In this document: positions 8,920 to 27,797 of the stretch, piece after piece | Layout: every line of letters starts with the position of its first letter | How positions within the stretch are numbered: the stretch's first letter is position 1 | Source: Alphaproteobacteria bacterium | Lineage (GTDB): Bacteria; Pseudomonadota; Alphaproteobacteria; UBA828 | Assembly (NCBI GenBank): GCA_965214705.1 | Contig: CBDCCI010000002.1 | Location: forward strand, 2,080,001-2,144,000 | Length of the DNA stretch: 64,000 bases | Reading direction: 5' to 3' | Notes under the pieces: generated by a model | The model's database searches: none | Seen by the model: the letters and a program-made list of their open reading frames with translations, nothing else | What the model was told of the DNA's origin: nothing | Translations under genes and position numbers: made by a program

Positions 8920-9480
8920 TCAAGGTGCGCAGCATCGCGCCGTGCTCCGCCGGCACGTCGCCGTTAGCGGCCCCCTGCGGGTGGCGTCGAGGTTGACCTC
9001 GAAGCCGGGACCACCGGACGCGGCCGGGGTCAGCCGCCAGCCAATGCGGTAATCCCGCGCCGCGCCGGAGAGCCCGAAGCCGGCGTCCGGCGTGCCGGTG
9101 AACGCATCGCCAAACGAGGGCAGCCCGTAGCCGATATCGCCCTCAAGACGGCTTGGCGCCTCGAAGCGCCCGTCGCCGCTGCCGTCAGGGGCCAGCCCGG
9201 CCAGCGTCTCGCGTAAGAGCAGCGCGTCCATGCTGCCCGCGGGCGAGGTGGCCCAGGATTGGCGCAGCGTGGCCGAGACGCCGCGGCCGATCGCCGACCG
9301 CCGCGGGTCGAAGGCGAGCGCGGCGCCCGCTCCCAACTCGCGGAAGCCCGACACCTCGTGCGCGATCAGCCCACGCGCCTTGAGATCGCGCGCGAGGCCA
9401 GCATTGGGATCGGAGAAGACGAGCCCGCCGCCGAGATCCGCGCCGAAGTCCGCCTGATGCCAATTCGCGGCCCAGAAGCC
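8920..9480 (-). pseudogene. C-terminal beta-barrel remnant of a large autotransporter/adhesin
   Basis: FGADLGGGLVFSDP...RLEGDIGYGL...FGLSGAARDYRIGWRL alternating beta-strand pattern; no N-terminal part; boundaries approximate. Confidence 0.6.
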
Positions 9481-9601
9481 GATGCCGCCAGGGCGGCCGT
9501 GGAACGACGAAACGATCCACAAGTTATCGCGGTAGGGAACCGGGTTGCCCCGGTCCCCCCGCACAGATCCGGACGGGCGCTGTTCGCATCCGGCTCCTCC
9601 C

Positions 9602-11038
9602 TCAGGTCCTGACGACAAGCCGCTGGTTCGGCCACGGATGACGGATGCTGGCCTTGGGCCAGTGGGCAGCAGTGAGGGGATTGATATCCTCCCACGCGGT
9701 GCGGTCCCGTTGGGACCTTCGCCGCAGGGCACGCATGAGCAGCCGTTTGCATTGGTGCACGAACCGCACCAGATAGCGGCCGCTCCCGGGTACGCCGTAG
9801 TAGTTGAGCCAGCCGTCGATGACCCTTCCCAGCCACTTCGCTGTCTCGTGCCGGTTGTCGTGCCAGCGCTTGCGCAGCCTTTCCGCGATCCCCCGCAGAG
9901 TGCGGTTGACCCGTTTCCGGGATGGCCTGCGGCCGACCCTGAACCGTCCCTTCCTCGACTGGTCGCAGAAGTGCGTCATGCCAAGGAAGTCGAACGTCTC
10001 CGGCTTGCCCTGCCCCCGTGTCCGGCGGTTCGCTTTCGCGTAGCGGCCGAATTCGATGAGCCGGGTCTTGCCCGGATGCAGTTCCAGTCCGTACTGGGCC
10101 AGCCTCTCGCCGAGGTCCCGGAGGAAACGCTTCGCGTCGCCCTCGTGCTGGAAGCCGCACACAAAATCATCGGCGTATCGCACGATGATTGTGTCGCCTC
10201 CTGCCGTCCGTTTGCGCCATGTGTTGTGGAACCAGTCGTCGAGCACGTAATGCAGGTAAACGTTGGCGAGGCAGGGTGAGATTATCCCACCCTGCGGAAC
10301 GCCCCTGCCGGTGTCCGTCCAGTCGGTCCCTTCCATGACGCCGGCGTTCAGCCACTTGACGATCAGCCGCATGACCCGCGTGTCTCCGATGCGCCTTTCG
10401 AGCATCCCGACCAGGTGGTCCCGCCCGAGATTGTCGAAGAACCCGCGGATGTCGGCGTCAACGACCCAGTTGACCTTCCGCCGTTCCATTCCAACCGCCA
10501 CGGCGTCGAGCGCGTTATGCGTCCCCCGCCCCGGCCGGAAGCCGTAGCTGAAGCCGAGGAACTCCGTCTCGTAGATCGGCACCAGAATCGTATCCGTCAC
10601 CGCCCGCTGGAGTATCTTGTCCTCCAGCGAGGCGATGCCGAGCGGTCGTTGTCCCCCGTCCTCTTTGGGTATGTAGACCCGCCGCGACGGCGGCGCCCGA
10701 TACGCCCCCCTGTGCACACGCCCGTGCAGGTCGACCAAGCGATCTTCCAGCCCGTCGGCGTATGCCTCCCACGTGACGCCGTCCACCCCCGCTGCCGCGT
10801 CCTTTCTCAGCGAATGGTACGCGTCGCGCAGGCAGTCAACCGTCACATGGTGGAGGAGCGCCACGAGACACTCATCCGGGTTCCTCTTTGCAGCCTGTCG
10901 TATCCGGTCGGCCGCCTGTGACTCGCTTCCCCGCTTCTGCGCGCGGCGCGAGCTTTGGCCTTTCGGATTGCCCTTGGGTCCGCCCCTTCGCTCCCCCGGC
11001 TCCGCCGGCCCCGAGGGGCCGTTGTTCGCCGGCTTCAT
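9602..11038 (-). CDS. ltrA: Group II intron reverse transcriptase/maturase of intron A (intact from ATG 11038; alternative start 17936 lies across intron B)
   Basis: AAGVDG, RPLGI, GVPQGG..SP, RYADD; no endonuclease domain; resembles bacterial class E. Confidence 0.93.
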   Translation of the reverse strand: MKPANNGPSGPAEPGERRGGPKGNPKGQSSRRAQKRGSESQAADRIRQAAKRNPDECLVALLHHVTVDCLRDAYHSLRKDAAAGVDGVTWEAYADGLEDRLVDLHGRVHRGAYRAPPSRRVYIPKEDGGQRPLGIASLEDKILQRAVTDTILVPIYETEFLGFSYGFRPGRGTHNALDAVAVGMERRKVNWVVDADIRGFFDNLGRDHLVGMLERRIGDTRVMRLIVKWLNAGVMEGTDWTDTGRGVPQGGIISPCLANVYLHYVLDDWFHNTWRKRTAGGDTIIVRYADDFVCGFQHEGDAKRFLRDLGERLAQYGLELHPGKTRLIEFGRYAKANRRTRGQGKPETFDFLGMTHFCDQSRKGRFRVGRRPSRKRVNRTLRGIAERLRKRWHDNRHETAKWLGRVIDGWLNYYGVPGSGRYLVRFVHQCKRLLMRALRRRSQRDRTAWEDINPLTAAHWPKASIRHPWPNQRLVVRT

Positions 11039-13264
11039 TGCTGTCGGGTCGGAGGAGGCGCCCCGCGAGGCTAGCCTCCGTCCGCCGCTCAAACGGCCCG
11101 TACGGTTTTCCCGTAAGCCGCTTTCACAAAGCCCAAGTTGGCACTTTTCCGCTGCCTGTGTTCCCTATTGGTTTGATTCAACGCGATATTTTTCTCGGTC
11201 GATTCCAACATGGCCCCACATTTTGTGAGATTCTGTCAGCTCATCAGACGGGTCCTCGTGCGGTGGATGGCGGGGTCCACGCCCGCCGCCGAGGAGATTG
11301 CGGCAACCTCGGCGGCCGGGCGCGTGTCCTGGCGGTTGACGATCAAGGTGCCGTCGGTCTGGCGCAGGCGCGTGGTGATCCGCACCCAGGTCCGCATGCT
11401 CTCGCGGATCGACGCCCAGCACTTGTGGATGCCGCGCGCGGCCAGCCGGGTACGGATCAGATGCACGGCGTGGTAGGCCAGCACGGCGATCAGCAGGTGG
11501 GCCGCGATGCGCCGGTCGAGCTGGTGCCAGATCGGGCGAAGGCCGAGCTCGGATTTCAGGCTCCGGAATGTCGCCTCGATATCCGTGATCCGCCAGTACG
11601 TCCGCAGGACCGTCTCGATGTCCCAGTCGACGTGGCTGGTGCGCAGCACATAGGCACCGGCGCCCTCATCGGCCTCGTCGTATCGCGGCCTGCGCTTGAA
11701 GCGCACGGCGGTGGCATTGGGGCCGGTTTTCGCCCTCTCGACCGTGATCTCGTAGTGCCTGGCGACGGCGGAGAAGCGCTGCTTGAGGCGGCCTATGCTC
11801 TCCAGCACCTTGTCGTAGCGCTTGAGGCGGCCCTTGACCGGGAGGCCGCCGTGGAGCCTTTCCAGCGCCGCCTCGAAGCGGTTCCGCCTCAGGCCGATGA
11901 TCGCGTTCTCGGCCTTCTTCTTGCCCTCGCTGACGACGTAGAGCCGCGCCTCGCCGTCCTCGCTGGCAAGCCGCCAGGCCCGCACCTCGTGGCGCGCGCT
12001 GGTGATCAGCAGGGCCTCGGGTCCGCCCTCGGGCGGCGCAGGCCTGGCACCGCGGCTGACCGCGATCCAGTCGTAGCCCTGCTCGCCCAGCCACGCGATG
12101 TTTTTCTCGGTGGCGATGCCCGCGTCCATGACCACCGTGGGCTTCGGCGCCGTGCCGCCGCACACCGCCTCGAGCCGCGCCAGCGCCTCGTGCAGCGTGC
12201 CCGGCTCGCTCACGTTGCCCGGCAGGATCTCGCAACTGCGCGGGAAGCCCGCGCCGTCGAGCGCCAGCGCCAGCGTGATGAGGGGACAGTCGTCGCGCTT
12301 CTGCTTGGAGCGCCCGAACCTGGGAAGCTCGCCGCCCGTGTGGCCGTGGTAGTGGACGTTGGTGAGATCGTAGAAGGCGATCGTCTCGGGCAGGTCGAGC
12401 AGTGCGCGCTCACGGTTGAACAGCTCCCGCTGGATGGCGGCGCGGTGGCGCCAGAGCAGGTCGCCGATGCGGTAGAGCGTCTTGCGCCGCAGCGCCTTGC
12501 GGTCGCCCTCCAGGCCCAGGAGCTCGGCGGCCGCGCTGTCGTGGCGGAGCCAGCGGCTGGTATCACGCTCGCTGGCGGGATGGACCATCCTGGCGACGAT
12601 CAGCGCGCTGGCGATGCGCCCGTCGCGGCCCTTGATGTCGAGGCCGTGGAGGATTTCGGCGAAGCCGAGGGCGTCGAGGGCCTTGAGGCACAGGCGCTCG
12701 CAGCCGACCGTGCGCGGGTTCTCGTGCTCCAGGGTATCGAGGTCGACGGTGGCGATGTCGGGCTTGCGCGCCTCTTCCTGCATCGCCTCGACGCGGAACC
12801 CCCTGGCCCTGAGCTTGGCGACGATGTCCTCGGCTGCGGCCCGCACATCCGCCTCGCCCTCGAACAGCGGCGGCTTGCCGTGAAGCAGCGCCTCGGCGAG
12901 TTCGGTGACGGCCTTCCACTTCTCGCGCGGCACCGGATAGTCGGTGCCGAGATTGAGCAGCGTCCTGTGGCGCACCTTGTCGCCGACGCGCTGGGCGAGC
13001 ACGAGGCGATGGCTTCGGACCGGCTGGCCGGCCTTGAACGAAGCCGCTACGCGGAGTTAGCGGCGTAGAGTTCATTCATTTCCGAGGCGTCGCGGGTGCC
13101 GTTTGTTCTGTGCGTTCGCTTCCCGGTTGCGTCAGTGGCGCTCCGCCCGTCGGGTGGCGGATCCCCAGCAGCCTCCCGATCACCAGTGGTTAGTATCGAC
13201 CCCTGCGACGGACCGTCGCCGGATCGGTCCGGCGGCGCGCCGTCGCGATCCAGGGAGATCGATA

Positions 13265-14143
13265 ATGACCGGGACCGCGTGCGACACGAACACCGTCACC
13301 CCTCTTCGCCAGCGCATGGAGGAGCAGCTCCGCATCGCCAATCTGGCCGCGAGCACGTCCAAGGCCTACATCTGCGAGATCAAGAACCTGGCCAGGTACT
13401 ACGACGCCTCGCCGGACGAGCTCGACGCCGAGCAGGTGCGCCAGTGGTACCTGGGGCGGATCGACAAGGGGCTCAGTCCGGGCACGACCAACGTCTCCTT
13501 CGCCGCGCTGAACTTCCTCTACATCGACACACTCGGCTGGCCTGACCATGTCGCCGGCCTGCGCTCCCGCAAGAAGCCCGGCAAGCTGCCGCGCTACATG
13601 TCGGAGCAGGAGGTCGAGCACCTCATCCTTGCGACACCCGACCTCCGCCACCGTGCTGCCATTGTCACCGGCTATGGCGGCGGGCTCCGCATCTCCGAGA
13701 CCTTGGCCATCAAGGTCGGCGACATCCTGTCGGAGAAGAAGCTGCTGCACATCCCCTCCGGCAAAGGCGGCACCGAGAGAATGGCACCGTTGCCGGACAT
13801 CGTCATCCACTACTTGCGCGTCTACTACAGGAACATCTGGCCGCGTCCGACGAGCTGGCTCTTCTACGGCGTCTCGCTCGACAGGCCCATCGCAACGGAG
13901 ACCTTGCAGGCCGCCTTCAGGAGGGCGCGCGACATTGCCGAGCTCGACCGCAGCTACACCTTCCATTGCCTGCGCCATTCGGCGGCGACCCATCTCCTCG
14001 AGCGCGGCGGCGATATCGAGGTGATCCGGGACATGCTCGGCCATCGAAGCGCGAACACGACCCGTCACTACGCCCGCGTCACCGGCAAGATGTTCGAGGG
14101 CCTCGACCACCCGATCTCAGGCTTCGCAGCGTTGCGCAACTGA
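13265..14143 (+). CDS. Tyrosine recombinase/integrase
   Basis: Copy of 6321-7199. Confidence 0.93.
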   Translation: MTGTACDTNTVTPLRQRMEEQLRIANLAASTSKAYICEIKNLARYYDASPDELDAEQVRQWYLGRIDKGLSPGTTNVSFAALNFLYIDTLGWPDHVAGLRSRKKPGKLPRYMSEQEVEHLILATPDLRHRAAIVTGYGGGLRISETLAIKVGDILSEKKLLHIPSGKGGTERMAPLPDIVIHYLRVYYRNIWPRPTSWLFYGVSLDRPIATETLQAAFRRARDIAELDRSYTFHCLRHSAATHLLERGGDIEVIRDMLGHRSANTTRHYARVTGKMFEGLDHPISGFAALRN

Positions 14144-14149
14144 CGGCGC

Positions 14150-15391
14150 GTGGAGGCCGAACGCGCGGGCGTGGCGGAGATCTTCCGCCGCGCCGGCGCC
14201 GCTTTCCGTGAGCGCCACAAAGGGCGCATCGACGCCGCCCGGCTCAAGGTCATGGGCGCCATCGAGGCGTGCCGCACCGCCGTGCTCGGCGGCCACATGT
14301 ACGCCTGCGAGGGCTGCGGGCGCGAGCATCCGCTCTTCAACTCCTGCCGCAACCGCCACTGCCCCACCTGCCAGGGTCTCGCCGCCAACCTCTGGAGCGA
14401 GGAGCGCGCCGGGGACATCCTGCCGGTGCCCTACTTCCATGTGGTCTTCACCCTGCCCAAGGAGGTTGCCGCCATTGCCTTCTGCAACCGCAGGGTGGTG
14501 TTCGACATCCTCTTCCGGGCCGTCGCCGAGACCCTGCGCACCATCGCCGCCGATCCCCGCCACGGCGGCATGCGCATCGGCGGCACCGCGGTCCTCCATA
14601 CCTGGGATCAGAAGCTCCGCTTCCACCCGCACCTGCACGTGGTCGTGCCCAACGCGGGCTTCGACGTAGACAGTGGCGAGTGGAAGACGGGGAGCACCAC
14701 CTTCCTCGCCCCCGTCAAGGTCCTCGGCAGCCTGTTCCGCCGCCTCTTCCTCGAGGAGCTCGCCCGCGCCCACGGCCGGGGGGACCTGGAGTTCCACGGC
14801 ACCCTCGCCCACCTCGCCAATCCCGGCGAGTTCCACGCCACGCTTGCCGCCGCCCGGGCCAGGGACTGGGTGGTCTACGCCAAGCGGCCCTTCCGCGGGC
14901 CTGAGCAGGTCTTCCGGTACCTCTCGCACTACACGCACAGGATCGCCATCTCCGACAGCCGCATCGTCTCCTTCGACGGCGAGACGGTCTCCTTCCGCCA
15001 CCGAAAGCCCAAGGCGCCGGGGCAGAGAAAGCCGCGCTACGGCATCGCCACCGTGAGCGCCGACGAGTTCATCCGCCGCTTCCTGAGGCACGTCCTGCCG
15101 GACGGCATGCACCGCATTCGCTACTTCGGCATCCTCGCCAACGGCTGCCGCGCCAGCACGCTGGAGAGAGCACGCCAGGCTCTCGGCGCCCTCGGCTGCG
15201 CCGCCCCCGAGGGAAGCGTGGACGGCGCTCGGGCCGAGCCCGACGAAGAGCCCGAGATCGGCACCGCGCCCGTGGCCTGCCCCCACTGCGGCGGCGTCAT
15301 GCGCCTCGTCCGCGAAATCCGCCGCCGCCATGAGCCCCGCTCGACGCGCGGCCCGCCGGCGCTGCCGCCGACCCACAGGGGGAAACCGTGA
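14150..15391 (+). CDS. IS91-family HUH/Y2 transposase
   Basis: Copy of 5073-6314. Confidence 0.93.
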   Translation: MEAERAGVAEIFRRAGAAFRERHKGRIDAARLKVMGAIEACRTAVLGGHMYACEGCGREHPLFNSCRNRHCPTCQGLAANLWSEERAGDILPVPYFHVVFTLPKEVAAIAFCNRRVVFDILFRAVAETLRTIAADPRHGGMRIGGTAVLHTWDQKLRFHPHLHVVVPNAGFDVDSGEWKTGSTTFLAPVKVLGSLFRRLFLEELARAHGRGDLEFHGTLAHLANPGEFHATLAAARARDWVVYAKRPFRGPEQVFRYLSHYTHRIAISDSRIVSFDGETVSFRHRKPKAPGQRKPRYGIATVSADEFIRRFLRHVLPDGMHRIRYFGILANGCRASTLERARQALGALGCAAPEGSVDGARAEPDEEPEIGTAPVACPHCGGVMRLVREIRRRHEPRSTRGPPALPPTHRGKP

Positions 15392-15653
15392 GACGCCCGC
15401 TCGCTTCGGCCCCGCGCAACGGCGCCAAAGCGCCGACGCACGACCGAACCTGTCTCCGCTTGAGCCGGGCTGACAGCCCTCGGCTCACACCCCGCTCAGT
15501 CCTCGCAGCGTGCGCCCGCATGCCTGCCGAAAGACCGGCGCGAGCGTCGATTTTATGCGCAACTCTGCTGCCGGTGGATGCCGCCTGACGCTGACATCAG
15601 CGCACTTTCCACATAGCTCAACTTCGCCTCTCGTGGCCCGCGGCTTCGTTCAA

Positions 15654-15695
15654 AAGGGTTGGGCAGGCTCTCGAGAGAGAGCCTGCCCAACCCTT
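15654..15695. repeat. Perfect 19-bp-stem hairpin at the end of the recombinase/IS91 element (also at 4769-4810)
   Basis: AAGGGTTGGGCAGGCTCTC-GAGA-GAGAGCCTGCCCAACCCTT. Confidence 0.9.
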
Positions 15696-15968
15696 AACCT
15701 TTTGTCGGTGTGTGTCCTGGTTGCCTTGATGTACATGGCGGCGCCGTTTCTGCGATGCCTGTTTCGCATACACGGCGTTCGCGGCATCTGGCAAGAGGGA
15801 TATCGACTCAACTCCAAAGTCCTGGCCCCACAATTGGCTTCCAGGACCACGAATGGCAAATGTGGGTCTCAGGTGTCCTCCAACCCCAACATCTAGTGGT
15901 TCAGCGCCGCAAAACTGGCTCGAACAGGCTCGGCTGGTCGGAAAAAGTGCCAACTTGGGAAAGGTGTC

Positions 15969-17279
15969 TCAACGAAGGTTCAAGGACGGAACCAGTGAGA
16001 TCAGGCGAACAAGCCCGTATTCGTCGATCAGCTTGCGCTCCGGCAACTGTTTCCAGCCAGCGTTGCGCCAGCGCTTGCGACGATGCGACCAGAGCCGCCG
16101 CACGATCCAGCCGTCAAGCTGGTGGAAGAGCCCGCGGACGTGGGCCTTGCAATAGTATTGGCCCCATCCCCGAATGATCGGGTTGATCTCGTCAATCAGC
16201 TCCTGCGTGCTGACAGGAGCCTTGCGCCGGGTACGCTGGCGAATCTGGTCCTTGAAGTGCCGGATGGATTTCTCACGCGGAACCGCGTAGCGCGCTCCCC
16301 CGCGAACCCCGCTCTTGATCTTGGAGGACGACAGCCGGAGAGGCCGCTCGCCCTGCTTGATCTTGTAGCCGAGGAACTCAAACCCGTGCCTGACATGGAC
16401 AATGCGGGTCTTCCCGGCGTTGAGGGACACACCCAGCTTTGCCAGAATCCGCCTGGCCGTCTCCAGTGCTGCGCGGGCTTCCCCGCGTGTGCGGCACGTG
16501 ATCAGCCAATCATCGGCGTATCGCGTTAGTCGATAGCCGCGACGACGCATTTCCCAATCGAACGGGGTCAGCAAGATATTGCTGAGCAGCGGTGAAACGA
16601 TGCCGCCCTGCGGAGTGCCCTGTTCGGTCGGCAGCCTCTTACCGTCGGCCACCACCCCGGCCGTGAGCATCTGCCTGAGCAGACCTAATACCCGGCCATC
16701 CGAGACTCGCTGGTTGACGAGTTCGAGGAGCTTTTCGTGGTCCACGGACCCGAAAAAGTCTTTCAAATCCGCATCGAGAACCCACTCGTTGCCCTCGTCC
16801 AGTTCCCTCCATATCTTGCGTAACGCTCCATGGGCAGACCTTCCTTGCCGGTACCCGTAGTTGGCATCGTCGAACACCGGCTCGAAGATCGGTTCCAGCC
16901 GGTTCAGCAGCGCCTGCTGGCACACCCGGTCGTAGATTGTCGGGATGCCGAGCGGGCGGAACTTCCCCGGCTGGCCCGCCTTGGGGATCAGGCATTGGAG
17001 AACCGGCTGCGGGTGATACTCACCGTCCCGCAACTCCCGGTGCAGGCGATCGAGATTTGCATCCAGCGATGCCTCGAACGCCGCTAAATCCTCTCCGTCC
17101 ACGCCACCGGCACCCCGGTTGCGCTTCACCTTTTCCCAGGCCACCTCAAGGTTCTTCCGCTTGTACACCTTGTCCACCAGTGAGTGGACCTTCCTGTCAC
17201 CCGCCGGGTTGATCCAGTCGATGAGTCTCCTCGGGCCATGATGTCCGGGTCTTTCGCTCAAGGAACTTGTCCGCGTCAT
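15969..17279 (-). CDS. ltrA: Group II intron reverse transcriptase/maturase of intron B
   Basis: KVHSLVDKVY, GAGGVDG, GTPQGGIVSP, RYADD; no endonuclease domain; resembles class F/g1. Confidence 0.93.
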   Translation of the reverse strand: MTRTSSLSERPGHHGPRRLIDWINPAGDRKVHSLVDKVYKRKNLEVAWEKVKRNRGAGGVDGEDLAAFEASLDANLDRLHRELRDGEYHPQPVLQCLIPKAGQPGKFRPLGIPTIYDRVCQQALLNRLEPIFEPVFDDANYGYRQGRSAHGALRKIWRELDEGNEWVLDADLKDFFGSVDHEKLLELVNQRVSDGRVLGLLRQMLTAGVVADGKRLPTEQGTPQGGIVSPLLSNILLTPFDWEMRRRGYRLTRYADDWLITCRTRGEARAALETARRILAKLGVSLNAGKTRIVHVRHGFEFLGYKIKQGERPLRLSSSKIKSGVRGGARYAVPREKSIRHFKDQIRQRTRRKAPVSTQELIDEINPIIRGWGQYYCKAHVRGLFHQLDGWIVRRLWSHRRKRWRNAGWKQLPERKLIDEYGLVRLISLVPSLNLR

Positions 17280-18772
17280 GGTCCTTACTCACTCATCGCT
17301 GTCTCTCGCCGACCACCTCTGCCAACCGACTTCCCCGGCCCACACGGCCGCCGCTCGCGCGGTCACCCGGCTTTCGCCGGGCTTCAGGTACTATTCGGTT
17401 GTCCGATTGCTCGCCGCGCATCCTTTCCCATTTCGCCTTTCGGCTTATAGGGTCCGTTATCCCGGTGCCACCCGGGAACGCGGCGAGCCCTCCTGGGGTC
17501 ACGTCCAGATCTTCCGTACCGTGCCGCTCGCAAACACCTTGGTGCGACGGGTGGGTAAGAACGCCTTCGCCGCCATAGTGCCGGCTCGACCTTGCCCCGT
17601 CTTTGGCCGACCGATTCATCATGGGGTGGCCCCCTCGATTACGGCCCGGTACTTCTCCGCAAGCCCTTCAGATTCCACCTCGCGGTGGACACCCTGCCTT
17701 CCGGTTGTCTTTCGACAGTGGACCAACTTAGCTCCTCCCTTGGCTGTCTCCGCCGTTTCCGGCTTCGTGCCCGTTTAGAGTTTCGCTTATCGGCTCACTC
17801 CGGCCAGTGAGGAATTACCCCCACTTTTGGATATGGCGCCCCTTACCCGAGCGCCAGTGGGACTTGAACCCACCTGATCTGGGCGCTGCCCAGCACACAC
17901 TATGGGCGAATCTGATTTCTTCGAACCGTACATCATTGGGTTGCGGTATAGCTCCTTTCCTTAGCGGCCCCGCACGACCGCGGGGCAGTTCGAAGACCTC
18001 CCAGGTCCCGGTGGACTGCTTCGGCACGTGCCATGGTTCTTAGACCCCGCAGAGCCCCTGCTCGCCTCACCAAAACGGCTCACAGGGTGTTGCCTTCGGC
18101 TAATCTGACAGCCTCGGCACCCCGGTTGAATCAGGTTTCGTGGCTCAATAGCCCGGCCCGTGCCTGCCGCTTCCCAACGCTTCGCCTGCCGCCTCGCGAC
18201 GACCGGCGCATGGGTCGCGGAGAAAGTGGTCGGTTCACCTCTCTTTCTGCCGGGACTTCCACCCGGCGACATTCCACCAGTTTGCCTGGCGCACCAGACT
18301 TCCTGACCTCATGGCCTTGGCGATGCGGATCGGTGCGTCGCGAACTCGTTGAAATCCCCGCTTTCTTCCCGTTTCAGGCCAGATTTTAGTTGATCGTCAC
18401 GGCGGAGGATGCTATTTTAAGGTGATGCATATTTGGTGGTCCGAACCATGCCCGTCACCCTCCCGATTTGCCCCCCAGAAGCGGTTCCGATCGGCAACAG
18501 CTGCTTCGCCGTCCTGATTTCCGACGACACCTTCACCTACTTCTCCAATCTCGTTCCGTTCGACAGCCACCCCGCCGATGACCGTGCCGCCATGCTCATG
18601 CGGATTGGCCGGCTCGCGGTGGTCAGCGATATCGCGCAACGGGATCTGGTCGACGCGTTCGGTGTCTCGCGCGCGACCGTGCTGCGCGCGCGGGCGGCGC
18701 TACCTGGCCGAGGGTGAAGCGGCGTTTCTGAAACCCCGGCGCGGTCGCGGGCCGTCGGTATTCACACCGGAA

Positions 18773-18935
18773 GGCTTATCCCTCTGGCTCCGGTTCCCCA
18801 ACATGTTGTACCGGCCACCTCGGCGGCGGTATCCGACACGGTCGCAGTTCCTTCCGTGTCTCAATGGGTTGCCCGTAAAGTGCCCAGCGATCCGGCACCC
18901 CACATATGGAGAAGCCGGATGTAAGGGGATAAGCC
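18773..18935. mobile_element. 163-bp MITE
   Basis: Terminal IR GGCTTATCCC with further imperfect pairing; 12-bp TSD TTCACACCGGAA (18761-18772, 18936-18947). Confidence 0.85.
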
Positions 18936-20594
18936 TTCACACCGGAACTGGCCGAGAAGGCGACAGCGTTGCTGGAAGCGGGCCTGAGCGGCTCTGCGGT
19001 GGCCCGGGTTCTGGGCGTGTCCGTCGGTCAACAAGTGGCGCCGGCAGGGGCTGATCGGCAAGCCGGCGCAGGAGCCTGGGGGTTCAGCGCCGGGTCCGAC
19101 GCCCGATGCGCTTGAGCCGCGCGAACGGTGCCTCGACGATGACGCTGCCCCCGGGTCCGAGACGGCACGACCGGAAGCGCAGCGCTCGACGGAACCGGCG
19201 CAGAGCCACTCACCAGGCCCCATCGACGCCGGGCCGCAGACCGATCGCACCGCACGCGACCGGCGCGACCGGCAGGCGCCGATGGGGCGCGCGACCTGCG
19301 ATGTTTCGGGCCGGGTGCTGGCCAGCTGCGGGCAGGCGGGGCCGGTCGATCCGCAGTTCGGCAGCGCCGCCCGCGGGGTGCGCTCAGGTGGCGTTCTCAC
19401 CGCCCTGCCGGCTCTGCTCAAGGAAGGCCTGCCGGCCGCGACCGAGGTCCTGCCACCGCTGCCGAAGGGCTATTACGGCCTGAACACGATCCTGCTCTTC
19501 CTGGCCTTCATGACCCTGGCGCGGGTGCGCAATCCCGAGAGCCTGCGCTACCAGCCGCCGGGCGAATGGGGCGCCATTCTCGGCCTCGACCGCTGCCCCG
19601 AGGTCAAGACGCTGCGGCGCAAGATCGCGCTGATCGCCAACGACGAGGCCGGCGTGCGGGCCTGGCAGCTCGCCCTTGCCAGGCGCTGGCAGGCCGACGA
19701 GCCGGAGCTCTGGGCGACGCTGGCCGTCGACGGGCACGTCAAGGTCTACGCCGGCCGCAAGGGACGCCTGCCGAAACACTTCGTCTCGCGCCAGAAGCTG
19801 TGCCTGCCGGCCAGCGCCAGCTACTGGATCAATGCCCTGGGCGGCAAGCCCCTGCTCTGTCTGCACAAGACGCTGGATCCGAAGATGGTGGCCGCCATCG
19901 AAGCCGACGTGGTGCCGGCGCTGCAGGAGCTCGGGATCGTCGACGCTCAGGCGCCGGATCTGACCGCAGAGGCGCCCGGCCACCCCGCGCTCACCCTGGT
20001 CTTCGACCGCGAGGGCTGGAGCCCGGAGCTGTTCCGCCGGCTGGCGAGGCGCGGCATCGCCTGCCTGACCTGGCACAAGAACTTCAGCGGCGAGGATTGG
20101 CCGGTCGAGGACTTCAGCGCGACGACCGTTCCCATTCACGGACCGGCGACGAGCGGCACCGCCACCTTGCGGCTGGCCGAAAAGCCGGTGACGTTGCCGA
20201 ACGGCTTCAGGGTGCGCCAGATCCGCCGCCTGCTGGACAACGGCCGCCAGATCCCCTTCATCGTCACCGATCCGCACAAACCGATGGGCGAGGCCGCAGG
20301 CGCCATGGTCTCGCGCTGGTCGCAGGAAAACTTCTTCAAGTACATGCGCGACGAGTTCAACCTCGACGCCCTGCCGACCCACCAACTCGAGCCGCTCGCT
20401 CCCGACACCATGGTGTTGGCGATCACGCAAAAGCGCGCGTATTCGCTCATTTTGACAGCCTGATGTGGTGGAGCGTTGATCGGCGTGGCGCCGATCTGCA
20501 GTGCTGAGCGCGGTCCGGCTTGTGGTGTTGGTCGTCGTGATCGCGGTGGTGCGAGAGCGGCCCTGCAGGTTTGGCTGAGGGACCCTGTTGTTTT

Positions 20595-21515
20595 TCAGTC
20601 GATGAGCCGATCGTCGGTCTCGAGCATATTGCCTTCGAGGTCACGCCTGCGCATGTCGTTCCAGTCGTCACCGTCGAGGGCGGGCCGCACGCGGACGACC
20701 CTGCTGTCGCTTCGGAACAGCCGCTCGGCGGCGTCATCGCCGCCAGGGGTAGCGTCGTAGGCACAGAAGATGCGGCGGGGGTTCCAGTCCTCGATCCACG
20801 CGGGGAGGCTTGGAGTGACGGCGGCGATGGAGACCACGGCACATTCCCTGAGTTCGGCGGGCATGAGCTGGAGGGAGAGGGCGGACAGGGCGTCGATGGC
20901 GCTCTTTGCGATGAGCACGGAGTGCGGCCAGTCGAGCTCCCACGATATCCAGAAGCCCCCGCGGGCGAGCGGGGATGGGGCAGCTTCGCCGGCGCCGGCA
21001 GCCGCTCCGCACCGGCCGCCGGTGGGGACGATCTCGGCGCCGGTCGCGACCCCTGCGGCGTCTCGACAGACGAACACGGCATTGGCGTTGCGGTCGGCGT
21101 GGACCAGGCGGAGGTCGCGGCACAGGGTGAGGAGCACGGGCGAGAGACCGCGCTCGTCGACGAGGTGGCGTTCCACTGCGGGCCAGTGCCGCTCCTGCGG
21201 ATGCGGCAGCCGTGGGCAGGGGCACTGCGGGGGGCGCCGGGAAAGGCCCGGCAGTTTCGCGAGGAAGGCCAGGGCGTCGGGCACGGTGCAGCGTTGGGCA
21301 TGGACCACCAGGTCGACGGCCCCGGCGCCGCCCTCGCCGCGCAGATGGTCGTAGAACATGAAGCGGTTGATGGTGACGACCGATCCAAGACGCCTCCAGC
21401 GATCGGCGTCGTCGGGATCGCGGCGGTAGCCGAGGGCGCGGGCGACGTCTTCGAGGGGACAGCCGCGCAGCCCCTCTGCCCGCAGCCGCCGCTCCCATGG
21501 GCGTAGCTGGCGCAC
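20595..21515 (-). CDS. DUF3991/Toprim primase-like protein (IS21 passenger)
   Basis: [10 protein letters not shown]...FYDH...GGAGAVDLV primase-like N-domain; HLVDERGLS; KSAIDALS; CAYDAT..GDDAA; DDWND. Confidence 0.7.
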
Positions 21516-21527
21516 GGCTGCGCCGCC

Positions 21528-22322
21528 TCAGTCGTCCCCGGTGTCCTGCGGGTCGCCGGATCGCCGGCGCCCTTTCTCCTGGCGCCGGCGGCGGCGCTCT
21601 GTGCTGCGCTGCTTCTGGCGCTCCTCGGCCTCCTTGCGGCGGTATGAATCGCCGTCGATGGCGATGATCTCGGCGTTGTGGACGAGGCGGTCGACCAGGG
21701 CCACGACGCAGGCGGCGTTGGGGAAGGCCTCGCCCCACTCGGCGAACGGCCGGTTGGTCGTGATAATCGTGGAGTTCTGCTGGGTGCGGCTTGAGACGAT
21801 GCTGAACAGCAGGTCGGCGTGGCGGTTGCTGTAGGAGAGGTATCCCACCTCGTCGATCACCAGCAGTTGCTGGCGGGCGTAGAAGCGCAGCTTTCGCTGG
21901 AGCAGGGTGTCGGAGTCGATGGCGGCGAGCTCGCCGAGCATGCTGGCAGCGGTGGCGAAGCGCACGGTATGGCCCTCGAGGACGGCGCGGTGGGCGATAT
22001 TGGCGGCGATCGTCGATTTGCCGACGCCGTTGGGGCCGACCAGGACGACGTTGGCGGCCTCCTTGAGGAAGTCGAGGCCCATGAGGTCCTCGACGGCCAT
22101 GCGGTCGCAGCGGCGGGGCCAGTCCCAGTTGAAGTCGGCGAGCGGCTTGAAGTCACCGAGCCGGGCATCGGCGAGGCGGCGCTTGAGGCTTCGGGCGCGT
22201 CTCTCGTCTTCTTCCCAGGCGATGAGCGTGGTCAGCCAGTCGCACTCGCCGACCTCGTCCCAGTGTGCGATGAGGCCGTGCAGGCCGAGGGCACGGGCCC
22301 GGTCCTTGAGGGTGTCGGTCAT
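21528..22322 (-). CDS. istB: IS21 helper ATPase IstB
   Basis: GPNGVGKS Walker [10 protein letters not shown] Walker [15 protein letters not shown]. Confidence 0.95.
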
Positions 22323-23824
22323 TCTTCGCTGTCCTCCTCCTCGCCCTCGCCCGCCAGCCCGTCGTAATCCGTCAGGTCGTGGTCGCGGACGGCGATGTCG
22401 CGGACCTTCGGATCGTCGGGCAGATCGACCGGGATGGGCGGCGGCTTGTCCTGCTGTTCGCGGCGCCTCGTCAGGCTCAGGCGCACGGCGTTGGGATGGG
22501 GGACGCCGCGCTTGAGCGCCTCGTCGATGCCGGCCTCGAGCTCGGCGGCGCCATACTCGTCGAGGAGGCGCAAGAGGGCGGCGACGATGGAGCCGAGATG
22601 GCCGCCGCGTTTGGCGGCCTCGTCGAGCAGGCGCTCGCTGTTCGGCGCAGCCTTGATCAGACGATCCTGCCCGCGAAGGCGCCGGGCGTGACGCTTTTTC
22701 TTGGCCAACTCGGCGATGTGCTCGGGGATCTCGATGCAGGCGCCCTTGTCGAAGCTGCGCGGATGGGTGGCAATGACGTCCGTGCCGTCGAGGATGCGGA
22801 CCTCGTCCAGCGTCGCGATCACGACAAGGGTGTGCCGCGCATGGGTGTGGGGGACGCTGTAGTCGTTGAGATCGAACCGGGCGTAAGGCGTCTTGCCGAT
22901 GACGACCTCGACCCGTTCGTCGACGGGGAAGCGGTCGCCGGGCAAGGCCATGAGAGAGCTGCGTTCCTTCTCGAAGGCCTCGCGCACGGTGATGGAGCGA
23001 TCCTCGGGCCAGGGGCGGTCGGCGGCGATGCCCTCGCACCAGGCCTCGGCCTGGGCGTTGAGGTCGTCGATGTCGCGCCACTCCCGGGCGGCGAAGAAGC
23101 TGGCGCGTACATAGCGTATGGCCCGCTCGACGCGCCCTTTTTCGTTGCCGCGCGCGATCGCGACAGGCCGTGCCAGCACGCGGTAGTGGGCGGCGAAGTC
23201 GAGGTACCGGGGATTGAAGTGGACAGCGCTCCCGCGGCGCTCGAGCACGACGCTCTTCAGGTTGTCGCACCAGATCTCGCGCGGCACCCCCTGCCAGGCC
23301 TCGAAGGCGTCGATATGGCCGCGCAGGAAGTTGTTCATCCCTGCGCCCAGGTAGAAGCGCAGGAAGATGCGGCGCGAGTAGCTGAGCACCATCACGAAGC
23401 CCATCAACGGGCGCTCCGCGCGCCCGATCCTGACCTTGCCGAAGTGGGCCCAATCGACCTGGGCCTGCTCGCCGGGAAGGGTCTTCAGCCGCAGATAGGC
23501 CTCGGCTTCAGGCTTCGGCCGCAGGGAGGCGATCACACGACGGAAGTGGCTCTGGCTCCCCCGGTAGCCGCGCCCGCACACCATCTCGTAGAGCCGGCTG
23601 GCCGGCAGCGTCGGGTATTTCTTCAGTGTCTGGCGGATGAAGGGGATGAAGGGATCGAGCTTCGAGGGCCGCGGCTTGTGCTGCCGAGGCTCCTCGGCGT
23701 CCCTGATCGCGCGCCGCACGGTGCCGTGATGGACGCCGAGCTGACGCGCGATCGTGCCGATCTTCCACTTCTCGGCGTGATACAGCCGCAGGATCTCCGC
23801 TCTCGTCTCCTTGTCTGTGGTCAT
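22319..23824 (-). CDS. istA: IS21 transposase IstA
   Basis: N-terminal HTH, PGEQAQVDW, DNLKS, KGRVER. Confidence 0.95.
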   Translation of the reverse strand: MTTDKETRAEILRLYHAEKWKIGTIARQLGVHHGTVRRAIRDAEEPRQHKPRPSKLDPFIPFIRQTLKKYPTLPASRLYEMVCGRGYRGSQSHFRRVIASLRPKPEAEAYLRLKTLPGEQAQVDWAHFGKVRIGRAERPLMGFVMVLSYSRRIFLRFYLGAGMNNFLRGHIDAFEAWQGVPREIWCDNLKSVVLERRGSAVHFNPRYLDFAAHYRVLARPVAIARGNEKGRVERAIRYVRASFFAAREWRDIDDLNAQAEAWCEGIAADRPWPEDRSITVREAFEKERSSLMALPGDRFPVDERVEVVIGKTPYARFDLNDYSVPHTHARHTLVVIATLDEVRILDGTDVIATHPRSFDKGACIEIPEHIAELAKKKRHARRLRGQDRLIKAAPNSERLLDEAAKRGGHLGSIVAALLRLLDEYGAAELEAGIDEALKRGVPHPNAVRLSLTRRREQQDKPPPIPVDLPDDPKVRDIAVRDHDLTDYDGLAGEGEEEDSEE

Positions 23825-23825
23825 C

Positions 23826-24272
23826 TCACCCCTCTCGTGCCGGGTGGCGCACCGTGCGCAGGCCCGGATGAACGAACACCGCGCAGAAGCGGCCGCAGAT
23901 GCTGCAGCGGAAGCCCCCGGCGGGCTCCTCGTCCCCGAAGGGGCGTGTTCCGCGGCGCGTCCCTGGCGTCCGTGGCACGACAACACGGCGGTGCGCGCGC
24001 GTCGAAGGGTGATGCGTCACTTTCCGCCCGCAGCCCTCATCCTGAAGCGCCCTGCAGCGCTGCCGGTCCCGATAGCGTCTCTGGCGCTCCGCGTGCTTGC
24101 GGCGCCCCGGGCGCCCGTCCTGGTAGCGCCGCCCGGCGAGACGCTGCGACTCTCGGCGCGCGCTCTCGCTGCACTCCCTGGAGCAGTAGTGATTGCCGCG
24201 GTCGCAGCGGGGGCAGAGAACAACCTGCCGATGACACTGCGGGCAGTTGAAGATGCGGCCGAAGTTCCTCAT
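23826..24272 (-). CDS. Cys-rich zinc-finger protein upstream of istA
   Basis: CPQC...CPRCDRGNHYCSREC and C-terminal CSIC; inside the IS21 ends. Confidence 0.65.
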   Translation of the reverse strand: MRNFGRIFNCPQCHRQVVLCPRCDRGNHYCSRECSESARRESQRLAGRRYQDGRPGRRKHAERQRRYRDRQRCRALQDEGCGRKVTHHPSTRAHRRVVVPRTPGTRRGTRPFGDEEPAGGFRCSICGRFCAVFVHPGLRTVRHPAREG

Positions 24273-25300
24273 CGCGGCGGTCGATGAGAACGGGCTCGAC
24301 CCCCGCAGAATCCAGCACAATACTGTGCATCTGGGCCGTGTCTGGCATGGCTCGGGGGTGCGGCGTCGGCTGTTGCGATCAGGCAAACGGGGCCGGCGCC
24401 GCATCGTTCTCAGCGGCCCGAGTCTACCCCCGGCGATCTCGATGTCAGGTGCGCAACGCTGCCGACGGCAAGCCCGCCGGACCTCAAAATCGGCAGGTCG
24501 CCTGGCCCAGCTTCCACACGACCGGCCGAAGGCCTGTGGACAAGTGGACAGCCGCTCCGCGCCTGACCACTTCCCCACAGGCCCAACAGCAACAAGCGCT
24601 CAAATCAGTGCGGACAAAAAACCCGTCAACTACATCGCCACCAAAATCACGCGCCCTAAATGAGCGAATACGCGCGGGTCTAGACGGTCACCAACACCAT
24701 GGTCGTCAACCCGCTCCGGCGGGCCTACGACAAGGCAATCCGCAGCGCCGAACGCCGGCTCGCCCGCCTGCGCAACCGGATCGCCGGCGCGGCCAGGAAA
24801 AAGAGGCCGACGGCGCAGCTCAGGAGCGAGGTCAGGGACCTCGAGGGCGCCCTCGAGATCGCCAAGGCCAGCCGCAGGAACGTGCCGAAGCACTGTCGAG
24901 CCGGCGACCTCGACGAAGACCGACAGCTCGATGCCCTGCCCTCACGCGACCGTCTCCTCCTCGACGTCATCCGCATGATCGCCTACCGCGCCGAAACCCG
25001 CATGATGCTCCCCGTCATGCAGGGACAAGGCAAGAAGCCTCATCCCCGGAAACTGCTTCAGGCTCTCATGGCCGCCGATGCCGACGTCCTGCCGGACCCC
25101 GCCAACGGCGTTCTCCGGGTCCATATTCTCGGCCTCGCAAATGACGCCTGCGACCGCCAGATCGATGCCCTCCTGAACGAGCTCAACGCCACCGAAACCG
25201 TCTTCCCCGGGACCGAACTGCGCATGGTCTACGAGGTCGCCGCAGCTCCGGAATCCACGTAAACCGCGTCACCCCAAATCAGCAGAGGTCAGGAAGTCTG

Positions 25301-27209
25301 GTGCGCCAGGCAAACTGGTGGAATGTCGCCGGGTGGAAGTCCCGGCAGAAAGAGAGGTGAACCGACCACTTTCTCCGCGACCCATGCGCCGGTCGTCGCG
25401 AGGCGGCAGGCGAAGCGTTGGGAAGCGGCAGGCACGGGCCGGGCTATTGAGCCACGAAACCTGATTCAACCGGGGTGCCGAGGCTGTCAGATTAGCCGAA
25501 GGCAACACCCTGTGAGCCGTTTTGGTGAGGCGAGCAGGGGCTCTGCGGGGTCTAAGAACCATGGCACGTGCCGAAGCAGTCCACCGGGACCTGGGAGGTC
25601 TTCGAACTGCCCCGCGGTCGTGCGGGGCCGCTAAGGAAAGGAGCTATACCGCAACCCAATGATGTACGGTTCGAAGAAATCAGATTCGCCCATAGTAGCA
25701 ATGAAGCCGGCGAACAACGGCCCCTCGGGGCCGGCGGAGCCGGGGGAGCGAAGGGGCGGACCCAAGGGCAATCCGAAAGGCCAAAGCTCGCGCCGCGCGC
25801 AGAAGCGGGGAAGCGAGTCACAGGCGGCCGACCGGATACGACAGGCTGCAAAGAGGAACCCGGATGAGTGTCTCGTGGCGCTCCTCCACCATGTGACGGT
25901 TGACTGCCTGCGCGACGCGTACCATTCGCTGAGAAAGGACGCGGCAGCGGGGGTGGACGGCGTCACGTGGGAGGCATACGCCGACGGGCTGGAAGATCGC
26001 TTGGTCGACCTGCACGGGCGTGTGCACAGGGGGGCGTATCGGGCGCCGCCGTCGCGGCGGGTCTACATACCCAAAGAGGACGGGGGACAACGACCGCTCG
26101 GCATCGCCTCGCTGGAGGACAAGATACTCCAGCGGGCGGTGACGGATACGATTCTGGTGCCGATCTACGAGACGGAGTTCCTCGGCTTCAGCTACGGCTT
26201 CCGGCCGGGGCGGGGGACGCATAACGCGCTCGACGCCGTGGCGGTTGGAATGGAACGGCGGAAGGTCAACTGGGTCGTTGACGCCGACATCCGCGGGTTC
26301 TTCGACAATCTCGGGCGGGACCACCTGGTCGGGATGCTCGAAAGGCGCATCGGAGACACGCGGGTCATGCGGCTGATCGTCAAGTGGCTGAACGCCGGCG
26401 TCATGGAAGGGACCGACTGGACGGACACCGGCAGGGGCGTTCCGCAGGGTGGGATAATCTCACCCTGCCTCGCCAACGTTTACCTTACGTGCTCGACGAC
26501 TGGTTCCACAACACATGGCGCAAACGGACGGCAGGAGGCGACACAATCATCGTGCGATACGCCGATGATTTTGTGTGCGGCTTCCAGCACGAGGGCGACG
26601 CGAAGCGTTTCCTCCGGGACCTCGGCGAGAGGCTGGCCCAGTACGGACTGGAACTGCATCCGGGCAAGACCCGGCTCATCGAATTCGGCCGCTACGCGAA
26701 AGCGAACCGCCGGACACGGGGGCAGGGCAAGCCGGAGACGTTCGACTTCCTTGGCATGACGCACTTCTGCGACCAGTCGAGGAAGGGACGGTTCAGGGTC
26801 GGCCGCAGGCCATCCCGGAAACGGGTCAACCGCACTCTGCGGGGGATCGCGGAAAGGCTGCGCAAGCGCTGGCACGACAACCGGCACGAGACAGCGAAGT
26901 GGCTGGGAAGGGTCATCGACGGCTGGCTCAACTACTACGGCGTACCCGGGAGCGGCCGCTATCTGGTGCGGTTCGTGCACCAATGCAAACGGCTGCTCAT
27001 GCGTGCCCTGCGGCGAAGGTCCCAACGGGACCGCACCGCGTGGGAGGATATCAATCCCCTCACTGCTGCCCACTGGCCCAAGGCCAGCATCCGTCATCCG
27101 TGGCCGAACCAGCGGCTTGTCGTCAGGACCTGAGGGAGGAGCCGGATGCGAACAGCGCCCGTCCGGATCTGTGCGGGGGGACCGGGGCAACCCGGTTCCC
27201 TACCGCGAT
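25301..27209 (+). mobile_element. Group II intron A, copy 2 (1909 nt)
   Basis: GTGCG start; ...TACCGCGAT end; EBS2 CCTGAT (25460-25465) and EBS1 CAGATT (25488-25493). Confidence 0.93.
25659..27133 (+). pseudogene. ltrA: Intron A RT/maturase with a 4-bp frameshifting deletion
   Basis: Copy 1 GTTTACCTGCATTACGTG versus copy 2 GTTTACCTTACGTG at ~26485; the 4-nt length difference between copies agrees. Confidence 0.9.
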
Positions 27210-27797
27210 AAGTTCAGCATCGCGCCCGGCGTTCGCGACCACCCTTGGGGATGATGGCTCTCCATCATCTCCCGCCACAAGCACTTGTCTGCAGAATCGC
27301 CGACCGGCTGCAGCGTCATCTCCTGTGGCGCAAGCAAGTGAAGCACAACCCACCGAAATCACTCAATACATTTCGGGCCAGACAATTAGAAGCCGGCAGC
27401 CCTTCTGAAGTGCATTTTGACGAGGTCCGGGCCCGATTGACCCGCTGTCTTTTCCGTATTAGCAGTAGGAACTCCTTTCCACCACCGTGGAAAGGTGAGA
27501 CGCGGCGAAACGTACAAGGGAATACACTATGCAAAGACCGGCCGCACGTCATGTTGCAACTTTCGCGGCGAACCTCGCAAAATTTGCCAGAGCGGTCGTC
27601 ATCGTCTCGCTAGCCGTCAGCACTTTCCCGAGCTTGCCGAATGCGGAAGGGGTGCCAATAGGGATGTACCCTTGCGAGGGTTCGTGCCCTCCCTAAACAG
27701 GATACAGTGTCGAGGCCTCCCGGACAGAGAGCAACTGAGAAAGCTCCAGTAGGTCCGCAAAGCTGCCGCTGTCGTAAACATCGTCAAGATCTCCATA

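Follow-up and report, generated by a model that had tools for sequence, protein, structure and literature searches.

The stretch of DNA analysed here (the window: 64,000 nucleotides, G000:C3:2080001-2144000, that is, part of contig C3 of an alphaproteobacterial genome, G000) contains a nested stack of mobile elements enclosed by two copies of the pentanucleotide AAGTT, at 9521-9525 and 27210-27214. At the core of the stack is an insertion sequence (IS) with perfect 16-bp inverted repeats (IRs), and at each outer tip of this IS sits a copy of one group II intron, here called intron A, facing outward. Several other elements, including a second group II intron (intron B), are lodged inside these three. 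The features that define the arrangement, with the intron's exon-binding sites (EBS), its reverse transcriptase (RT)/maturase and its open reading frames (ORFs), are the following.

9521-9525: left copy of the IS target-site duplication, AAGTT, outside the left intron A
9526-11042, minus strand: left copy of intron A, 3' part (intron positions 397 to the end), placed by repeat and BLAST alignment
9602-11041, minus strand: intact RT/maturase frame of the left intron A copy (P0001; YADD, RVT_1, GIIM)
17899-18294, minus strand: left copy of intron A, 5' part (positions 1-396), its 5' GTGCG adjoining the left IR
18295-25300, plus strand: the IS, an interrupted copy, with 16-bp perfect IRs at 18295-18310 and 25285-25300
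19282-20463 and 24699-25262, plus strand: pieces of the IS transposase gene
25301-27209, plus strand: right copy of intron A, 1909 nt, continuous, with ORF pieces at 25659-26759 and 26384-27133
25460-25465, plus strand: EBS2, CCUGAU, pairing with IR positions -13 to -8 (GTCAGG)
25488-25493, plus strand: EBS1, CAGAUU, pairing with IR positions -6 to -1 (AGTCTG)
27137-27209, plus strand: domains V and VI of intron A, with a bulged A in domain VI and a 3' end in ...AU (RF00029, 34.2 bits, gathering score 40)
27210-27214: right copy of the IS target-site duplication, AAGTT; its initial A is at +1 relative to the right intron and is the probable intron-binding site 3 (IBS3)

The junctions are exact to the base. 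The right copy of intron A begins with GTGCG immediately after GAGGTCAGGAAGTCTG (25285-25300) and ends in ...CGCGAT, after which AAGTT follows; the left copy, on the minus strand, has its 5' end at 18294, against the IR at 18295-18310, and its 3' end at 9526. The two sides match each other in repeat arms at 17899-18310/25285-25696 (412 nt, 100%), 10254-11042/25697-26485 (789 nt, 100%) and 9513-10250/26485-27222 (738 nt, 99%).

This placement is the rule for intron A across the genome. A BLAST comparison of the intron with the whole genome (7.9 Mb) finds five 5' ends and six 3' ends, and all five 5' ends directly follow a 16-bp IR tip, with none elsewhere. They are spread over three IS copies, which have differing flanks and each of which has its 5-bp duplication outside the introns: the window copy and C3:2189360-2191903 have introns at both tips and the duplications AAGTT and ATGTT, respectively, and C3:23898-26441 has an intron at its right tip only, with the duplication AGGCT. 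A matching 5-bp duplication is expected by chance at a rate of 1/1024 each. The one-sided copy gives the order of events. Its AGGCT touches the bare IR on the left and comes after the 3' end of the intron on the right, which proves that the IS arrived first, with its 5-bp duplication, and that the intron arrived second, after the IS had transposed, between the last base of the IS and the first duplicated base. The intron insertions leave the IRs and the IS intact. Two further full copies of the IS (94% and 84% identical) are free of introns, and one of them has CATTT directly at its IRs. In total, the genome has 16 exact IR tips and two with one mismatch, five of which are occupied by intron A.

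The bases of the IR tip are those that the intron would be expected to read. EBS1 lies in the 9-nt loop of a GGCU/AGCC hairpin in the Rfam consensus structure and EBS2 in an unpaired stretch; each pairs with the IR at six of six positions, with one G-U pair each. Pairing at 12 of 12 positions that are fixed by homology would arise by chance with a probability of about (3/8)^12 = 8e-6. The EBS columns come from a domain I alignment of ten relatives with a placeable 5' end, drawn from a search for relatives of the intron-encoded protein (IEP) in 185,579 species genomes that found 87, of which 77 distinct loci were kept. EBS1 pairs at 6/6 with the cognate 5' exon in seven of the ten introns whose full exon is visible, intron A included, at 5/6 in L084 and L108 and at 4/6 in L151; relative L083, with four exon bases visible, pairs at 4/4. 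EBS2 pairs at 6/6 in three of the ten (intron A, L086 and L087), at 5/6 in L149 and at 3-4 of 5-6 positions in the others. Among 100 non-cognate combinations, 6% give EBS1 pairing at 6/6 and 2% give EBS2 pairing at 6/6. The EBS2 sequences of L086 and L087 differ by compensating changes. From these comparisons the EBS1 assignment is well validated, and that of EBS2 is validated by its position and by this one covarying pair. On the other side of the insertion point, each intron A copy has different host DNA as its 3' exon, and only the first base is shared: the base after all six 3' ends is A. This A at +1 is probably IBS3, and a U-A EBS3/IBS3 pair like that of RmInt2 is likely by analogy.

By its sequence, intron A belongs to the mobile group II introns and encodes in domain IV an RT/maturase that lacks an endonuclease; it is predicted to splice and to retrohome. 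Both window copies match the Rfam model RF02005 (group-II-D1D4-6) with 154 bits against a gathering score of 49. The RF00029 match to domains V and VI, which scores below its gathering threshold, stops exactly at the predicted 3' end. The IEP has RVT_1 (1.6e-34) and GIIM domains and the YADD motif, and it scores 339.9 bits against the TIGR04416 cut-off of 300; domain searches found no nuclease domain in it.

The initial annotation of the window had two outward-facing copies of intron A starting right after the 16-bp IR, AAGTT outside both, and EBS1 and EBS2 pairing with the IR, and it had proposed that the intron specialises on the IS end without damaging the IS. The coordinates, the RF02005 scores and the repeat arms agree with that layout; the duplications recur in the same position at the other two loci; the positions of both EBS elements are confirmed by homologues and by the Rfam structure; and the placement of every 5' end at an intact IR supports the proposed specialisation. 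Its left copy of intron A, given as 9526-18294, has the correct ends and is not contiguous, since an insert of 6856 bp splits it.

The junctions are also supported by Logan contigs from four sequencing runs, which were compared with 24700-27500 and which, as the best-matching runs, may include the sample from which the genome came. Runs X1, X3, X5 and X7, which carry three organism labels and belong to three studies, all have contigs that begin within the IR, or pass across it, and extend into intron A. Loose ends upstream of 25285, where the interior of the left IS end is joined to the IR-intron junction, correspond to the arrangement at the left tip; a loose end after 25300 corresponds to the flank of an empty tip; and loose ends at 25696/25697 correspond to intron B junctions. 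In run X7, three different sequences follow the 3' end of intron A. As contigs, not single long molecules, these data support the junctions, not the whole 17.7-kb layout.

The elements nested in the stack are as follows; MITE stands for miniature inverted-repeat transposable element.

11043-17898, minus strand: 6856-bp insert within domain IV, left copy of intron A, consisting of intron B and elements nested in it
11043-11131, minus strand: intron B, positions 1936-2024 (intron B is split by other elements)
11132-15959: insert that splits intron B, made of IS4-like and IS91-like elements
11236-13002, minus strand: IS4-like DDE transposase inside intron B
13103-14143, plus strand: integrase (346-aa tyrosine recombinase) of an IS91-like unit inside intron B
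14150-15391, plus strand: Y2 transposase (413 aa) of the same IS91-like unit
15960-17898, minus strand: intron B, positions 1-1939
15969-17279, minus strand: IEP of intron B
about 18771-18937: MITE of 167 bp within the IS transposase gene, in the N-terminal helix-turn-helix (HTH) region
about 20415-24690: IS21-family element within the IS, with 58-nt imperfect IRs and an IstB domain encoded in 21528-23453 on the minus strand

Intron B is 2024 nt long and has 21 5' ends genome-wide. Its homing site is conserved, ends in ...CCATAGT and lies just before a Met within the IEP frame of intron A and of introns related to it. Sites of this kind make up at least 11 of the 21 5' exons, which yields twintrons; the other 10 are unrelated and end in (A/G)TAGT. 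The IS91-like unit in the window copy (13103-15391) is also present in another intron A copy (L159 8452-11114), with equal ORF lengths. On another contig (L161; G000:C1:1694283-1699510), a 3' fragment of intron A (positions 397-1909) lies behind an intron B copy with an unrelated 5' exon, an arrangement that suggests recombination between intron B copies. Its 3' flank starts with AGACT, the pentanucleotide also found before the left IR of the IS copy C3:520991; this may reflect an old rearrangement, or chance. The MITE has 37-nt imperfect terminal repeats and at least 26 further copies at 97-100% identity, as counted among the 40 of 167 candidates that were scored. The left flank of the stack (9026-9446) is itself multi-copy sequence: G000 and several members of the genus match most of it at 66-74% identity, and G034, G040 and G041 contain dozens of shorter matches. 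The IS therefore landed in another repeated element.

The carrier IS is 2544 bp long in its uninterrupted form, and its IR, read inward, is CAGACTTCCTGACCTC. The genome has five full copies, four of them with 5-bp duplications, plus MITEs. The transposase (about 790 aa) combines N-terminal HTH domains with the Pfam domain PF21804 'Transposase_29' (E 1.3e-105). The NCBIfam models of IS families give nothing above cut-off and sub-threshold HTH matches to the IS630 and IS481 models, none of the 120 homologues listed carries the name of an IS family, and a tblastn search of 72,556 plasmid records gave no match. The right-hand intron A and the transposase gene have the same orientation and can be transcribed together; a scan of the left IS end for consensus promoters found nothing. 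The TAA stop of the transposase in the window (25260-25262) is CAA in two near-identical IS copies (L158, at about 3004), so that their transposase frame runs through the right IR into intron A for 111 codons. The T-to-C variant at this stop also occurs in read contigs.

The IS and the intron have different distributions. The 5.9-Mb genome of a sister species in the same genus (G032) has 245 IR matches with at most one mismatch (124 forward, 121 reverse), corresponding to roughly 120 IS copies, and no intron A; the IS is thus the older and more widespread partner, and intron A is a recent arrival in the lineage. One of the IS copies in G032 is inserted in a related intron (L054). Among 44 genomes of the family, intron A was found in none other than G000, and the best match elsewhere is 76% identical.

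Relatives of intron A with IEPs 64-89% identical to its own occur mostly in marine alphaproteobacterial metagenome-assembled genomes (MAGs) and have the same ribozyme architecture and EBS positions. The closest of them (IEP 84-89%), in marine alphaproteobacterial MAGs, occupy other targets. One is at the end of a TnpB gene (L082), one at an intergenic site (L084), two are in a Strawberry-notch-type helicase gene (L086 and L087), and one is within the ORF of a DDE transposase (L088). A single alphaproteobacterial MAG carries about 20 copies of a 64%-identical relative (L090-L107, L131 and L140; OZ220465.1), each of which either lies within domain V of another intron or follows directly, head to tail, on the 3' end of one. 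Because the 5' exons of these relatives are other sequences, tip targeting is a retargeting specific to intron A, not a trait of its lineage. The EBS sequences of L083 predict a slightly different tip, and its contig ends 4 nt upstream of the intron; neither the IS transposase nor the predicted tip motif was found in that MAG. In another MAG (G048), a transposase of 59% identity is accompanied by IR tips that differ, and the intron copies are all 5'-truncated. In JGI metagenome contigs, the exact IR-intron junction pattern gave 0 stretches and a looser one gave 6, 0 of them with a PF21804 transposase upstream; one of the six has a GFA-family gene as its 5' flank, and three are probably not introns. 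One metagenome contig (L201, 36-96) has a perfect 16-nt palindromic stem, with arms like the IR of this IS family, directly upstream of an unrelated group II intron.

We propose that intron A homes by EBS/IBS pairing to the outward-read end of its carrier IS, a reading to which we assign a probability of about 0.85. IBS2 (-13 to -8) and IBS1 (-6 to -1) lie wholly within the 16-bp IR, the intron enters at the phosphodiester bond between the last base of the IS and the first base of the host, and the 3' exon would contribute only the A at +1. As the two IRs are identical, every IS copy offers two sites on opposite strands, and filling both places outward-facing introns around an intact IS and inside the IS's own 5-bp duplication. 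Where the introns sit, in which order the elements arrived and how the bases pair is shown by the sequences; the route of retrohoming, splicing and activity today are inferred. Each intron copy would then stem from a separate retrohoming event after IS transposition. Retrohoming would be expected to proceed by nascent-DNA priming at replication forks, since the IEP lacks an endonuclease, and by analogy with RmInt1 and RmInt2. By the GC skew of contig C3, which is noisy, three of the five copies are in the lagging-template orientation and two in the leading-template orientation, an uninformative split.

Several observations weigh against this reading or against its completeness. A is found at +1 in 8 of the 11 unoccupied exact IR tips, so either the target definition is incomplete or intron A no longer moves. 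Its present-day activity is doubtful: no copy in the genome is both uninterrupted and ORF-intact. Intron B occupies position 396/397 in three copies, and a fourth carries an IS91-like insert near position 1466; of the other two, one is frameshifted and the other a 3' fragment. EBS3 of intron A was not located, EBS2 pairing is weak in most homologues, and the EBS1 pairing of L151 and L108 is poor. No empty orthologous site of the left flank was found in 21 genomes of the genus, and no RNA runs containing the stretch were found. Intron B is lodged in domain IV, and an internal Met of the IEP frame follows closely; copies of intron A that carry intron B might therefore still be functional if it were spliced out, or even unspliced. 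The right-hand copy in the window is frameshifted because it lacks 4 nt (TGCA), near 26484, that are present in other copies; the undeleted form of this site is seen in short-read contigs from three runs.

As an alternative to fork priming, retrohoming could be coupled to transposition itself. The intron would then reverse-splice at the fresh IS-host joint and prime cDNA synthesis from the host 3'-OH that the staggered cut leaves on the other strand, some 5 nt downstream of the IS tip, with the transposase replacing the missing endonuclease. The insertion point is indeed the bond made by strand transfer, and this 3'-OH would be about where endonuclease-bearing introns nick to prime. Occupancy also fits, with intron A at 5 of the 6 tips of the three mutually closest IS copies (two of which differ by 1 nt in 2544) and at 0 of the 12 other exact or one-mismatch tips. 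These 12 are found on older IS copies, fragments and MITEs, and the +1 base is A in at least 8 of them. Introns occur in both strand orientations, 3 versus 2. The contrast in occupancy is, however, confounded by differences in the distal 5' exon, by the relatedness of the copies and by small numbers, and the distal exon, history or chance would explain it equally well. In addition, RmInt1 and RmInt2 retrohome on plasmids with no transposase present, according to PMC4615759, and the one-sided copy at C3:23898 is, by the same noisy GC skew, in the lagging-template orientation that ordinary fork priming predicts. We regard coupling to transposition as unlikely. If true, it would mean that copying of the intron is mechanistically tied to every transposition of the carrier IS.

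Much less probable is that intron-IS-intron moves as a unit, as a composite transposon whose insertion makes the duplication. The duplication does flank the whole sandwich at two of the three loci, and the introns form long inverted repeats. This explanation fails on the one-sided copy, where AGGCT touches a bare IR, and it is at odds with intron-free IS copies that have duplications directly at their IRs, with an intron 3' end that is unlike the IR and with nested inserts that differ among the intron copies. Least credible of all is that the arrangement reflects misassembly, or homologous recombination between repeats in place of homing, even though the region is a pile of repeats and the 3' fragment of intron A on contig C1 looks like a recombination product. 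Five junctions at three loci have distinct flanks and matching duplications, short-read contigs of independent runs cross from the IR into the intron in both IR contexts, and recombination cannot put a unique 5-bp duplication outside each pair.

The closest known parallel to homing at the IS end is RmInt2 of Sinorhizobium meliloti. Martinez-Rodriguez et al. 2014 (PMC4615759) place all seven RmInt2 copies of strain GR4 'within the inverted repeats' of ISRm17, an arrangement that provides two sites in every IS, one on each strand, and that they discuss as doubling the number of targets; Toro et al. 2018 (PMC5894124) repeat the placement. As described in PMC4615759, the RmInt2 target is read by EBS1, EBS2 and a U-A EBS3/IBS3 pair; at a minimum it comprises positions -16 to +7, among which A+2 and A+7 are selected. 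Like RmInt2, which has its copies at the IRs of one IS, intron A has all five of its 5' ends there, with both tips filled on two of the three occupied IS copies. The two introns are of different lineages: RmInt2 is a class D intron with 72% nucleotide identity to RmInt1, whereas intron A, with an IEP of at least 479 aa, is not an RmInt1-related class D intron, its IEP being 35% identical to a 419-aa S. meliloti IEP that has RmInt1's published length and may not be RmInt1 itself. Their carriers differ as well, since the ISRm17 transposase (444 aa) is unrelated to that of intron A's carrier (BLASTP E 0.1).

The exact junctions also appear to differ. In the ISRm17 copy of CP140947.1, the RmInt2 -16 to -10 motif, the -11 mismatch, A+1, A+2 and A+7 all fit, and from this match to the published text motifs we infer that the RmInt2 site would lie about 22 nt inside the left IR of ISRm17, facing inward and splitting the end of the IS. 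Intron A sits at the IS-host boundary and faces outward, leaving the IS whole and with arbitrary host DNA as its 3' exon, whereas RmInt2 would sit within its IS. The S. meliloti pSymA record contains ISRm17 with no intron at the ISRm17 IR motif. ISRm17 is assigned to ISNCY/ISDol1 in PMC10194956; the label 'ISNCY-like' that the initial annotation gave the carrier of intron A is unconfirmed, given its PF21804 and HTH domains and its lack of similarity to the ISRm17 transposase. RmInt1, which homes to ISRm2011-2, and Sr.md.I1, which homes to an IS66-type transposase ORF, are, like intron A, endonuclease-less introns that home to an abundant IS. Unlike intron A, they have one site per IS, in the transposase gene, and their insertion blocks the spread of the IS, according to PMC5894124 and PMC4615759. 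Literature searches for tip-exact intron targeting found only the RmInt2/ISRm17 work. Homing to the IRs of an IS has thus already been published for RmInt2, and the novelty is narrower than at first supposed: what is new here is the intron lineage, the IS family and, if RmInt2 lies as placed above, the position of the junction exactly at the tip and its outward direction.

Class C (IIC) introns resemble intron A in that their insertion point is set by a short motif bordering another genetic unit and in that they demand little of the 3' exon. They read a DNA hairpin and are not known to use an EBS2, whereas the EBS2 of intron A is verified and its domains I to IV match a different Rfam model. 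The stem-loops after which IIC introns insert are those of terminators or attC sites (PMC7923331).

Intron A would be a natural case in which every determinant of the 5' exon lies in the end of a transposon and the 3' exon is arbitrary, and this makes the target portable. Wherever in the genome the carrier transposed, it would bring two new homing sites with it, and it would stay able to move. For RmInt1 and RmInt2 the published view is different, namely that intron insertion restrains the host IS. The case bears on the minimum 3'-exon information that endonuclease-less introns need, and so on their retargeting as gene-targeting tools, and it raises the question of whether transposition intermediates supply the primer. 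The arrangement also points to a retroelement that lives as a commensal or hitch-hiker of a DNA transposon.

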